From Thermodesulfobacteriales bacterium (GTDB taxonomy: Bacteria; Desulfobacterota_D; UBA1144; Nemesobacterales; UBA2774), in assembly GCA_004525335.1 (NCBI GenBank), contig SPCL01000002.1, positions 1 through 32,798 of the forward strand: a stretch of 32,798 nucleotides of DNA, read 5' to 3'. The translations under genes and the position numbers were made by a program. Every line of letters starts with the position of its first letter. Positions within the stretch are counted from its first letter, which is position 1. This document shows, in pieces, positions 4,487-9,041 of the stretch. Below the pieces are notes generated by a model, which was not told the DNA's origin, ran no database searches, and saw nothing but the letters and a program-made list of their open reading frames with translations.

Positions 4487-4563
4487 TGGAGCGGGAAACG
4501 GGATTCGAACCCGCGACCTTCTCCTTGGCAAGGAGACGCTCTAGCCAGCTGAGCTATTCCCGC
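4487..4563 (-). tRNA. tRNA-Gly (anticodon GCC)
   Basis: The reverse complement folds as a 77-nt cloverleaf. Acceptor stem is GCGGGAA/TTCCCGC and D stem is GCTC/GAGC. Anticodon stem is TCTCC/GGAGA with loop TTGCCAA. The T arm is GCGGG-TTCGAAT-CCCGT and the CCA end is encoded. Confidence 0.93.
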
Positions 4564-6839: not shown

Positions 6840-7817
6840 TTAAGCAAATACTTCGCCGAACGGATCTACTCTGGTTTGATCTGCAACCTGCTTAATAATC
6901 TTTTTGTCTTCTCGTTCTATTCTGATTAATCCATTCTTTCTTTTAGTCGCTATAAACTGAGTTCCGCTTGTTTCCTGTGAAATTCTTTCTAGAATCCTAG
7001 GATAGTTTTTAGATCCGATAAATATTGAATGTATACATACTCCTAGTTTCTTAGCACGCATTCTTTCGTTGATAACATCGCAGTCTCCGGATGTGGGTAT
7101 ACCGTCAGTAATAAATAAAATATGCTTATTTCTGAGTCCTCTGCCTTTAAATTCAGAGATTGCGTCTTTAAGGGCGTCTTCATAGTTCGTGTTTCCCGAA
7201 CATTCGGTTTTCGAAGCTAGATCAAACATCCAGTTATAGTCTCGGGTAAAGAATTGGGAGTTTCTTTTATACTTGTAGGACCTATGATTAAATTCAACAT
7301 ATCCAACTCTCATTCTCTTTGATCTGGCTAGCTCTACAACTCCTCTTACAACAGATGAAGACCATTCACTATAGACACCCATCATTGAAGTGCTTACATC
7401 TCGGAGTATAGCTATCTCACCGCCCATCATTTCTTTCTCTCTTTTATGAACGCGGGGTAATGTGGGGCTAGTGTTTTCAGCCCAGATCATTGCCTCGAAT
7501 GGATCGATATCCTCAATCTCATCGAAATGATTCATTCTTTTCCATGTTCTGGGCATTCCTCCCGGGTGAGGAGCCCTGAGAGCCATGCTTCTCTGGAAAT
7601 TGCCTTCCAGAACCTTCATTATAATTCTTACGTTATCTGCGGAATCAGTATTCTTATCGCCGCCTAGCCAATAATCCTCTTCATCACCCGGATCCTGGGA
7701 CTTGCTGGCAAATACTTTGTTTGATTGTGGTGGTTCTCTATCTTCTCGGTTCCCCAGGTCATCACTTATCTGACCTTCTGGATCAGAGGGGATATCCTGA
7801 TTGTCAGGGGGGATCAT
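6840..7817 (-). CDS. von Willebrand factor A (VWA) domain protein, partner of the upstream MoxR ATPase
   Basis: 325 aa counted from ATG 7817. The MIDAS motif is DVSTS (DxSxS), followed later by ITDGIPTSG. The N-terminus is acidic and low-complexity. There is no strong SD before ATG 7817. The same frame stays open upstream to 8033 (see findings). Confidence 0.8.
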   Translation of the reverse strand: MIPPDNQDIPSDPEGQISDDLGNREDREPPQSNKVFASKSQDPGDEEDYWLGGDKNTDSADNVRIIMKVLEGNFQRSMALRAPHPGGMPRTWKRMNHFDEIEDIDPFEAMIWAENTSPTLPRVHKREKEMMGGEIAILRDVSTSMMGVYSEWSSSVVRGVVELARSKRMRVGYVEFNHRSYKYKRNSQFFTRDYNWMFDLASKTECSGNTNYEDALKDAISEFKGRGLRNKHILFITDGIPTSGDCDVINERMRAKKLGVCIHSIFIGSKNYPRILERISQETSGTQFIATKRKNGLIRIEREDKKIIKQVADQTRVDPFGEVFA

Positions 7818-7999
7818 GTTACTTTCTCTCTCTATATTCTCTTTGAGTTCTTTAAGGGCTTGAAAAAAGGTTTTTCGGGCTTCGGAGAGCTCATCATCCC
7901 GGGATTCTTTTGTTGCATCTTCGTCGGGAATTTCCTGGTGTTTATCCTCATCTTCTCCCGGCTGATTACCATCTGGTTGAGAGGCTTCTTGTTCTTGCT

Positions 8000-8962
8000 C
8001 TAACTCACCCGGCCTGTCGTTGTCTTTTTTTTTTTATTATTCAGGTCGTCAAGAATTTGATCGAGTTGCTGAAAAACTTCTTCAGGGACTCTGAATGCAG
8101 TCATAAATTTGAGTGCGTTTAAGTCCTCTACCGTGCACACCTCTCTGTCGTGTAATAGGGCGTGTGCTCTCATTATCTTGAGTGATTTAACAAAGAATGT
8201 TCTGTCTGATATTAGAGAGTTTGTTTCATTACATCCGTAGTCTTCTATTAGTGTCGCAACAAAATTAGCCAATGCTTCTTGAACAACTAGAGGTATTTCA
8301 ACACTTTCAAGTTTCTCGTAATACTCATCGAAGACCTCTCTGTTTACCCTTGCAGGCACCTCATAGGTACTTGGCCTTTCGCTGTAAAGTTTAATAACCT
8401 CTCTTGCTTCCTTCCACTTCCTTCCGTAAGAAAGCCCTTGTGAATTAATCTGTAAAACAAATCTATCCAAGTTGGCCGGATCGAGAGGCTCGTTGTAATA
8501 CTCATCAGCAGTCGGGTTACTAGTACCAATTGCTGTTAGTAGAGGAATATTTTCGTTAAAGAATTTTCTTTCATTAAGTATTCTAAGTAGTACGTTAAGT
8601 GATTCCCCAGGGGCTCTTGAAATATCATCAAGGAGACAAATCTCTGAAGTTAATATCCCGCCCTTTACAACTTTTTGCTTAATTAATTCGCCGTCGTCAG
8701 TTGTCTCTTTTGAAATTACCAAGTCGCCAATTAATTCTGATAACCTGGTGTCTCTGTGAAGCTGATAGAAAAAGAATCTGAGACTGGCAGCTGCAGATAC
8801 AATTTCAGATAACATGGTTTTTGCAGTTCCAGGAGGCCCCTCTATATATATGTGTTCTCTTGCTATGATGCCTAGTAGAAGAGCTAATTTTACTTCTTCA
8901 TGCCCTACTACTAGTTTATCCATTTCTTCTTTGAGAACTACGAACGGATTTTGAGTTGTCAT
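8000..8962 (-). CDS. MoxR/RavA-like AAA+ ATPase
   Basis: 320 aa. Walker A is GPPGTAKT and the Walker B region is CLLDDISRA. The LNVLLRILNER and NLDRF motifs are typical of MoxR-class ATPases. GGAGG lies 12 nt upstream of the ATG. Confidence 0.88.
   Translation of the reverse strand: MTTQNPFVVLKEEMDKLVVGHEEVKLALLLGIIAREHIYIEGPPGTAKTMLSEIVSAAASLRFFFYQLHRDTRLSELIGDLVISKETTDDGELIKQKVVKGGILTSEICLLDDISRAPGESLNVLLRILNERKFFNENIPLLTAIGTSNPTADEYYNEPLDPANLDRFVLQINSQGLSYGRKWKEAREVIKLYSERPSTYEVPARVNREVFDEYYEKLESVEIPLVVQEALANFVATLIEDYGCNETNSLISDRTFFVKSLKIMRAHALLHDREVCTVEDLNALKFMTAFRVPEEVFQQLDQILDDLNNKKKKTTTGRVS
8024..8035 (-). other. A11 homopolymer containing an A_AAA_AAG heptamer (candidate -1 recoding, slippage or phase-variation site)
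   Basis: Plus strand 8025..8035 is T11. On the mRNA strand the ATPase frame reads AAT AAT AAA AAA AAA AAG ACA. The heptamer is 8030..8024. The presence of the tract is certain. The confidence value refers to a recoding function. Confidence 0.45.
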
Positions 8963-9012: not shown

Positions 9013-9041
9013 ATTGTACATAAGGGGTGTTTTTTTTGCAA
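9013..9041 (-). promoter_or_regulatory. candidate sigma70 promoter for the MoxR-VWA operon
   Basis: On the minus strand: TTGCAA (9041..9036), a 17-nt spacer, then TACAAT (9018..9013). It lies about 50 nt upstream of ATG 8962. Confidence 0.5.

Follow-up and report, generated by a model that had tools for sequence, protein, structure and literature searches.

A conserved A-tract as a putative programmed recoding site in a family of MoxR-VWA genes

The ATPase-VWA locus

The window analysed here is the whole of a 32,798-nucleotide stretch of DNA from a Thermodesulfobacteriales bacterium (contig SPCL01000002.1), and the feature under study is a run of eleven As on its minus strand, near the 3' end of an open reading frame (ORF) encoding a MoxR-class AAA+ ATPase. 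Past this A11 tract the frame of the ATPase soon closes, while the -1 frame continues through an acidic linker into a VWA domain. On the mRNA strand the ATPase ORF ends GAC CTG AAT AAT AAA AAA AAA AAG ACA ACG ACA GGC CGG GTG AGT TAG, the base after the run being the G at position 8024. The -1 frame opens after the TAA at 8036..8034, passes through 69 codons lacking a start to the ATG at 7817, and runs on to a stop at 6840, such that either one extra A or a -1 shift yields a product of exactly 707 amino acids (313+69+325). The peptide DNDRPGELEQEQEASQPDGNQPGEDEDK is an example of what is encoded in this frame. The features of the site are as follows.

6840..8962, minus strand: putative whole recoded gene, encoding a MoxR-class AAA+ ATPase, an acidic linker and a VWA domain; 707 amino acids once one base is added or re-read
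8000..8962, minus strand: ORF of the short product in the 0 frame; 320 amino acids, ATPase only, ending KKKKTTTGRVS
8025..8035, minus strand: A11 tract (T11 on the plus strand), encoding the nearly invariant KKK(K); proposed slippage or shift site
8024..8030, minus strand: A_AAA_AAG in the correct X_XXY_YYZ phase; candidate -1 ribosomal frameshift heptamer
8000..8002, minus strand: TAG stop of the 0 frame, seven codons past the tract
8034..8036, minus strand: TAA stop in the -1 frame directly 5' of the tract, seen by three-frame translation, which confines the overlap of the frames to the tract region
7818..8024, minus strand: 69 codons of acidic linker reached only through a shift, with no in-frame ATG, GTG or TTG
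7836..7880, minus strand: conserved helix block ARKTFFQALKELKEN in the linker, identified from alignments, 5' of the ATG at 7817; helix predicted over residues 352-380
6840..7817, minus strand: remainder of the linker and the VWA domain, publicly annotated as a separate 325-amino-acid 'hypothetical protein'

The length of the tract, the in-phase heptamer, the stop seven codons further on and the 707-amino-acid fusion had been put forward in a first reading of the window (hereafter the original prediction), and were all confirmed on the minus strand. The tract is the longest homopolymer in the 32.8-kb window, where the runner-up is 8 nt, and A or T runs of at least nine are scarce in the related loci, with 25 found in 725 kb when the tract site is excluded.

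Identity of the reconstructed protein

A search of 5.8 billion proteins with the 707-amino-acid product recovered more than 100 homologs that are single polypeptides, 574-751 amino acids in length. The 34 closest are 66-77% identical to the reconstructed product and cover 98-100% of it. In the alignment of these homologs hardly any variation is seen in the tract-encoded KKK, and the stretch that is supposedly intergenic in the window holds a strongly conserved block, (L)SEARKTFFQALKELKEN. These comparisons indicate that the unit is a single gene, consisting of an AAA+ ATPase, an acidic linker and a VWA domain, and that one such AAA+-linker-VWA gene represents the ancestral state of the family. 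The premise of the original prediction that MoxR ATPases and their VWA partners are normally separate polypeptides does not apply to this family.

Within the reconstructed protein, Pfam matches to bpMoxR (3e-21, the best match of the ATPase domain), AAA_5 (3e-18), AAA_3 (5e-10) and AAA_lid_8 (3e-6) fall on residues 12-287, and VWA families match residues 504-674. A profile search of the PDB returned the MoxR-like structure 2r44 (1.9e-25) and RavA (2e-12), and the top structures found with Foldseek were 2r44 and 3nbx. Judged by its core, its lid and its nearest structures, the ATPase belongs to the MoxR/RavA class of AAA+ proteins. An AlphaFold model of moderate confidence (mean pLDDT 63), which served for domain boundaries only, locates the tract where the last AAA+ lid helix ends; the linker, residues 312-440, is modelled with low confidence apart from one helix over the conserved block, and is followed by a confident VWA fold. 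The linker is probably disordered.

Frame states across relatives

The level of variation at the junction was studied in a species survey using one genome per GTDB species, which yielded 80 loci; their frame states were assigned by tblastn with the 707-amino-acid product and inspection of the junction DNA. A -1 break at residues ~310-313 is present in 50 of the 80, on tracts of A9 (2 loci), A10 (26) and A11 (22, or 23 including the window), and a +1 change is needed in a single locus, L040, which has A10. About 20 further loci keep a tract of A9-A12 and are in frame, and nine are in frame with no tract. The tract, at A9-A12, is therefore found at the same codon in about 71 of the species loci, and none is shorter than nine.

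The split loci range from ~58% to 96% in protein identity to the window. In them a stop is reached within 3-18 codons in the 0 and +1 frames, whereas the -1 frame is open for ~390-400; where the tract is retained in frame, both alternative frames reach a stop within 2-26 codons. The context of the tract is A11 followed by G in the window's clade, and A10 followed by GCC, A10 followed by TCC or A11 followed by CCC in other clades.

Among close relatives, the exact 320-amino-acid product recurs in a SPAdes contig (L115, ENA ERZ24842203) and in a Logan assembly (L116, ERR5010715), from which it follows that both carry the A11 allele, and a JGI contig 99% identical to the window (L088) likewise has A11. 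The metagenome contigs from the window's clade comprise 20 that are split with A11, two with A9 in frame, two with A12 in frame and one with A10. The nearest species representative (L001, at 5x coverage) has A12 and is in frame, with 98% amino acid and 97.5% DNA identity to the window, and another sister pair, L043 (A10) and L012 (A11), is 95.7% identical in DNA; within each of these two pairs the difference amounts essentially to one A. Some further loci share the flanks of A11 genomes and read A9 or A12 in frame (L081-L084) or A10 (L040 and L113). These variant lengths, and the A12 of L001 (~1490-1510), may be real alleles or homopolymer assembly errors.

As far as can be told from contig names, the assemblers and platforms behind the split loci appear varied (k141, NODE, complete OZ chromosomes and MFD contigs). 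Irregular sequence was seen at two loci: in L036 Ns directly follow the tract (~4940), marking a scaffold gap at the homopolymer, and in L059, a long-read metagenome-assembled genome (MAG), the tract is shortened and the frame breaks again near residue 500. Faulty assembly seems a better account of both loci than biology. Taken across species, the shared break is a conserved feature, and not an error, a pseudogene or the boundary between two separate genes. Comparison of orthologous loci had been suggested as a check in the original prediction; the relatives carry the A-tract, a -1 frame free of stops and no conserved start or Shine-Dalgarno (SD) sequence for the VWA protein, and this comparative evidence strongly supports the claim that the tract is a recoding site joining the ATPase to the VWA domain by a -1 change.

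Selection on the downstream frame and on the tract

Ratios of non-synonymous to synonymous substitution (dN/dS) were calculated for 49 split genes by the Nei-Gojobori method. The ATPase and the VWA domain gave 0.044 and 0.051 respectively. The linker codons that separate the 0-frame stop from the ATG at 7817, 65 in number and read in the -1 frame, have a ratio of 0.079, and the acidic stretch 3' of these has one of 0.133. The 'intergenic' linker codons are thus under purifying selection in the -1 frame. No start codon lies between the tract and the conserved block in the window's clade; on the mRNA strand between the ORFs no promoter-like or terminator-like sites were found, and an Rfam scan of this region gave no match.

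The tract itself also shows an unusual composition. Its lysines are encoded by AAA in every one of 67 genes, compared with 1715 AAA to 1740 AAG elsewhere in the same genes; the probability calculated for this contrast treats related genes as independent. The exclusive use of AAA extends even to genomes in which it accounts for just 7-20% of lysine codons, and none of the nine other KKK triplets in the same genes reads AAA AAA AAA. This pattern indicates that the tract is conserved as nucleotides, beyond what the protein requires.

Separate ATPase genes and switching between states

The nine fused genes lacking a tract (L039, L042, L044, L045, L046, L048, L050, L054 and L055) come from SAR324, Lambdaproteobacteria and other MAGs. 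All nine have an ATPase-only gene immediately 3', the ninth of which is truncated by the end of its contig. By contrast, a separate ATPase-only gene is present within ~4 kb of flank at none of the 71 tract-bearing loci. The stand-alone ATPase is 325-348 amino acids long in seven of eight cases, the eighth ORF being over-extended at 417, and its C-terminus coincides with the aligned position of the tract. It is 50-56% identical to the ATPase domain of the window, against 41-48% for the N-domain of its fused neighbour. The tract-less fused genes have a diverged Walker A motif, GEPGCAKT, whereas the adjoining ATPase-only gene has the canonical GPPGxAKT. By analogy, the tract-less lineages would exhibit a division of labour resembling that of BchD and BchI.

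A simple neighbour-joining tree has the tract as the ancestral condition of a large clade, with at least 4-5 switches between the fused and split states through the change of one A. The family has three interchangeable genomic solutions: two genes, a tract in frame, or a tract out of frame. Both the complementary distribution of tract and separate ATPase gene and the switching between states are expected if the short and the long form are each required, with the tract supplying whichever of them the DNA frame lacks.

Proposed mechanism of recoding

Programmed recoding, whether by slippage or by frameshifting, is strongly indicated by these comparisons as the explanation for the arrangement. 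The recoding site would be the conserved A-run, which lies exactly where the AAA+ lid gives way to the linker. Standard expression of the A11 allele would produce the 320-amino-acid ATPase-only protein, and a set fraction of expression events would move to the -1 frame and produce the 707-amino-acid ATPase-linker-VWA protein. Most likely, one additional A enters the mRNA when RNA polymerase slips while copying the T11 template; a -1 shift of ribosomes on A_AAA_AAG may play a part as well, and both mechanisms could operate jointly. Both products would be needed, and they would probably co-assemble in the manner of BchI/BchD, CobS/CobT and the products of frameshifted chlD, with the tract setting the ratio of short to long form.

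Slippage by RNA polymerase is, on balance, the probable main route. It is favoured because the minimum tract length is nine, corresponding to the threshold for RNA polymerase rather than the 7 nt of a ribosome; because every one of the three codon phases is represented among the runs and the base that follows may be G, C or T; because no downstream structure is conserved; and because lineages that are in frame have not lost the run and, like Thermus dnaX, close both of the other frames with stops. The RNA:DNA hybrid is 9-10 bp long and slippage needs more than seven As (PMC3711429, PMC5009743). When poly-A cassettes from chlD were placed in E. coli, the frame changed in 63% of cases with 11 As, 40% with 9 As and 10% with 7 As (PMC3711429).

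Folding of the 75 nt downstream in 19 diverse split loci revealed no conserved hairpin (z-scores from -2.0 to +1.75), and no upstream SD at a suitable spacing can be read in the sequence of the window. The original prediction had likewise seen no convincing stimulator of either kind. The dnaX heptamer that it emphasised is in phase and invariant within the window's clade, but the element conserved across the family is a homopolymer of at least nine As. Given the three codon phases, the variable 3' base and the lack of a conserved hairpin or SD, RNA polymerase slippage, which the original prediction named among its other routes, has a likelihood no lower than that of frameshifting. That nearly every split locus needs -1, the equivalent of one extra A, is explained equally well by slippage biased towards insertion and by -1 ribosomal frameshifting.

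Several considerations weigh against the interpretation as a whole or in part. The G following the tract is invariant in the window's clade and creates, in phase, the optimal bacterial -1 heptamer A_AAA_AAG, as would suit ribosomal frameshifting as the main route, although the same G doubles as the first base of a conserved Asp codon. The complementarity with separate ATPase genes is an observation over about 4 kb of flank only. Finally, what the complex does, and that its two forms would co-assemble, are drawn from analogy with related machines; these, like the molecular mechanism and its efficiency, are matters that we infer.

Alternative explanations

The most serious alternative is that the same two products arise from a homogeneous mRNA, with dnaX-type -1 ribosomal frameshifting on A_AAA_AAG or A_AAA_AAA as the main mechanism. 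In its favour, A_AAA_AAG is in phase in the window and invariant in its clade; an in-phase A_AAA_AAN exists within every tract of nine or more As; all split species loci but one need -1 and not +1; and A_AAA_AAG is the most shift-prone heptamer in bacteria with a single tRNA-Lys (PMC5009743). This explanation is nevertheless considered less likely than slippage, as no tract shorter than nine occurs in ~71 genes even though 7 nt would suffice, neither a conserved downstream structure nor a well-placed upstream SD accompanies the run, its 3' base and phase differ between clades, and in-frame lineages retain long runs.

In phase variation, slipped-strand mispairing would toggle the gene between an 'off' state at A11 (ATPase only) and an 'on' state at A12 or A9 (fusion), and the length of the tract does indeed vary between very close relatives, as between the window and L001, or among L081-L084, L040 and L113. 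However, 50 species and ~20 contigs have the out-of-frame allele as their consensus, and it is stable throughout whole clades (A11 followed by G, A10 followed by GCC), a mostly 'off' gene would not hold a dN/dS of 0.05, and lineages that are in frame still keep the tract. Phase variation is improbable for these reasons, and also because the product is cytoplasmic rather than a surface protein. Classification as a phase-variable contingency locus was rejected on the same grounds: an out-of-frame allele fixed across clades, a constrained downstream ORF and a cytoplasmic ATPase.

It is more doubtful still that the region contains two ordinary genes, with the VWA protein initiated at the ATG at 7817 (M383 of the long product, 7815..7817) and no fusion made. 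An ATG stands at this position in 45 of 49 split loci, against only 8 of the 18 that are in frame, public annotations call the 325-amino-acid protein from it, and an AAGGAG-like sequence precedes it in a few relatives. The median SD energy at this ATG is, however, -2.4 kcal/mol, no better than the -3.0 of background internal ATGs and far from the -7.3 of true starts. The codons upstream are conserved as protein in the -1 frame, with the dN/dS of 0.079 and the invariant ARKTFFQALKELKEN, and lack a start in the window's clade; the 0-frame stop is 183 nt upstream of the ATG, too distant for translational coupling; and all in-frame orthologs are single polypeptides. M383 thus appears, from its sequence context, to be a conserved Met rather than a supported start, and a minor VWA-only product made by internal initiation there is possible.

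Artefact or decay, that is a homopolymer assembly error concealing a true A12 or a recent pseudogene, can practically be dismissed: homopolymers are error-prone, the 5x-coverage representative L001 reads A12 in frame, and Ns or extra frame breaks mark L036 and the long-read MAG L059, but A11 is read in the window and in assemblies from SPAdes (L115), Logan (L116) and JGI (L088), the same -1 break recurs in 50 species with assemblers and platforms that, judged by contig names alone, appear to differ, and the downstream ORF is intact and constrained. The original prediction had listed both A12 misassembly and phase variation as other routes to the fusion, and as main explanations they are essentially excluded by the shared break in 50 species and the constraint on the downstream ORF.

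Domain motifs and genomic context

Beyond the recoding site, the following features of the gene and its upstream region were identified.

8816..8839, minus strand: Walker A motif GPPGTAKT, from the alignment
8624..8629, minus strand: Walker B position reading DD (LLDDISR), from the alignment
7386..7400, minus strand: MIDAS motif DxSxS (D522, S524, S526) of the VWA domain, in invariant alignment columns
9013..9041, minus strand: promoter-like TTGCAA-17-TACAAT 5' of the gene, a match to consensus only, conserved in close relatives

In addition to the DxSxS of the MIDAS, T592 and D620 are invariant across the alignment. At the Walker B position DD replaces the usual hhhhDE, and does so invariantly in the whole family (L001-L080), stand-alone ATPase paralogs included; by its sequence, this substitution may entail slower or altered hydrolysis of ATP. 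The spacer of the promoter-like element holds an A8 run (T8, 9030..9037 on the plus strand), which is A7 in the relative L095, and a homopolymer in this position could tune expression.

The neighbours in the window encode an Adhesin_E-like protein, a Na/Ala symporter (Na_Ala_symp), YceG and ProB (AA_kinase/PUA), the last three being on the strand opposite to the ATPase-VWA gene. No shared operon partner, beta-propeller gene or chelatase H/N subunit was detected in the flanks of the window or of eight diverse loci. The sole tRNA gene in the window is a tRNA-Gly(GCC) at 4487..4563 on the minus strand, and the window contains no tRNA-Lys.

Annotation and significance

In public annotations (NCBI, JGI, ENA and Logan) the gene is represented as two proteins, a 'MoxR-like ATPase' of 319/320 amino acids and a 'hypothetical protein' of 325, and one 320-amino-acid variant occurs on 41 contigs. 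Such records systematically mis-annotate what is probably a recoded gene. Dozens of MAG annotations split the gene in this way and omit 69 conserved codons, and a recoding annotation is warranted. More generally, frame breaks at homopolymers merit comparison with relatives before they are dismissed as assembly errors.

The clients and the assembly of MoxR ATPases are mostly obscure, and the prediction made here is that in this family ATPase-only subunits combine with ATPase-linker-VWA ones in one complex, as BchI does with BchD. The three genomic solutions provide a natural comparison of how recoding sets subunit ratios, and of transcriptional with translational means of doing so. A broader proposal is offered tentatively: that these genes constitute an ancient, hitherto unreported recoding family spanning most Dadabacteria and Entotheonella-like relatives, in which the A-run would serve to set MoxR-VWA stoichiometry. 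As slippage would yield both products from either allele, tract length could drift over A9-A12, between in-frame and out-of-frame states, and tune the short-to-long ratio in an evolvable way.

Comparison with known systems

BchI-BchD, CobS-CobT, RavA-ViaA, NorQ-NorD and CbbQ-CbbO are AAA+/VWA machines encoded by two genes. Like the family described here, they pair an AAA+ ATPase of the MoxR or chelatase class with a VWA/MIDAS partner; they differ in that recoding of a single gene would supply both subunits in the window, and the DD at the Walker B position, in place of DE, sets the whole MoxR-VWA family apart. The VWA protein BchD has an AAA+-like N-domain of its own and an acidic linker (for the chelatases, PMC9227772), and the tract-less relatives in SAR324 and Lambdaproteobacteria have this BchD-like layout, with a fused gene and a separate ATPase gene. 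The ternary MoxR-vWA-beta-propeller systems, from which Pfam PF20030 (bpMoxR) derives, share with the window the bpMoxR match and the VWA partner, but neither a beta-propeller nor a conserved third gene lies beside the gene in the window, in which ATPase and VWA are combined.

The dnaX gene gives rise to tau and gamma by -1 frameshifting on A_AAA_AAG in E. coli and by slippage on a 9-nt run in Thermus thermophilus, and in Chlorobi it is found as two ORFs with an A10 run (PMC5009743, PMC3711429). As proposed for the window, an A-run allows one AAA+ gene to give two products that share an N-terminus; the E. coli heptamer is identical to that of the window; and dnaX homologs likewise have either an in-frame arrangement, where slippage makes the short form, or an out-of-frame arrangement, where the long form needs the shift. 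By contrast, dnaX belongs to an unrelated AAA+ clade with another function, the out-of-frame arrangement is the commoner one in the MoxR-VWA family, and the upstream SD and downstream hairpin that act as stimulators in E. coli dnaX were not found at the MoxR-VWA tract.

The closest parallel is with the frameshifted genes for the medium subunit of Mg/Co-chelatases, fs-chlD (Antonov et al. 2013, PMC3711429; Atkins et al. 2016, PMC5009743; Kuznetsov et al. 2022, PMC9227772). In these too a single gene encodes an AAA+ module followed by an acidic linker and then a VWA domain. A conserved -1 change takes place where the AAA+ module ends, on A_AAA_AAR or poly-A (7-11 As); the small, I-like subunit comes from the 0 frame and the medium, D-like one from the shifted frame. 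These genes are also annotated as two adjacent ~1-kb genes, have in-frame fused orthologs, and lack the signal where a separate gene for the small subunit (chlI) exists, as seen with the tract of the MoxR-VWA family. The original prediction was not aware of any description of a regulated ATPase to ATPase-VWA ratio; for chlD, an analogous AAA+-VWA gene, a set ratio of short to long form produced by poly-A frameshifting has been described (PMC3711429, PMC9227772), and the novelty had been put too high. The sites in fs-chlD usually have downstream RNA structure (PMC9227772), whereas none is conserved at the MoxR-VWA loci, and the lineages differ, the MoxR-VWA tract being carried by Dadabacteria/Thermodesulfobacteriota and relatives of Entotheonella.

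Membership of the window gene in chlD itself was considered and rejected. Its Pfam match to Mg_chelatase (PF01078) reaches 17.4 bits against a cut-off of 20.3 and covers residues 18-55 only, the score for NCBIfam TIGR02442 is 30 bits against a cut-off of 779, and the sequence, profile and fold lists from the PDB are led by 2r44 and RavA and contain no chelatase I/D or CobS/T chain. Around the window gene and at eight diverse loci, the flanks contained neither chlH/cobN nor tetrapyrrole genes.

In the literature reachable by search, no prior report of recoding was found for a MoxR-VWA gene or for Dadabacteria. If the broader proposal made above is correct, then together with fs-chlD it would imply that the derivation of an I-like and a D-like subunit from one gene is a general, reused design of AAA+/VWA systems, or possibly one inherited from a common ancestor. 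The MoxR-VWA case resembles fs-chlD and dnaX in its logic, representing a recoding principle that is already known in a gene family that is different.

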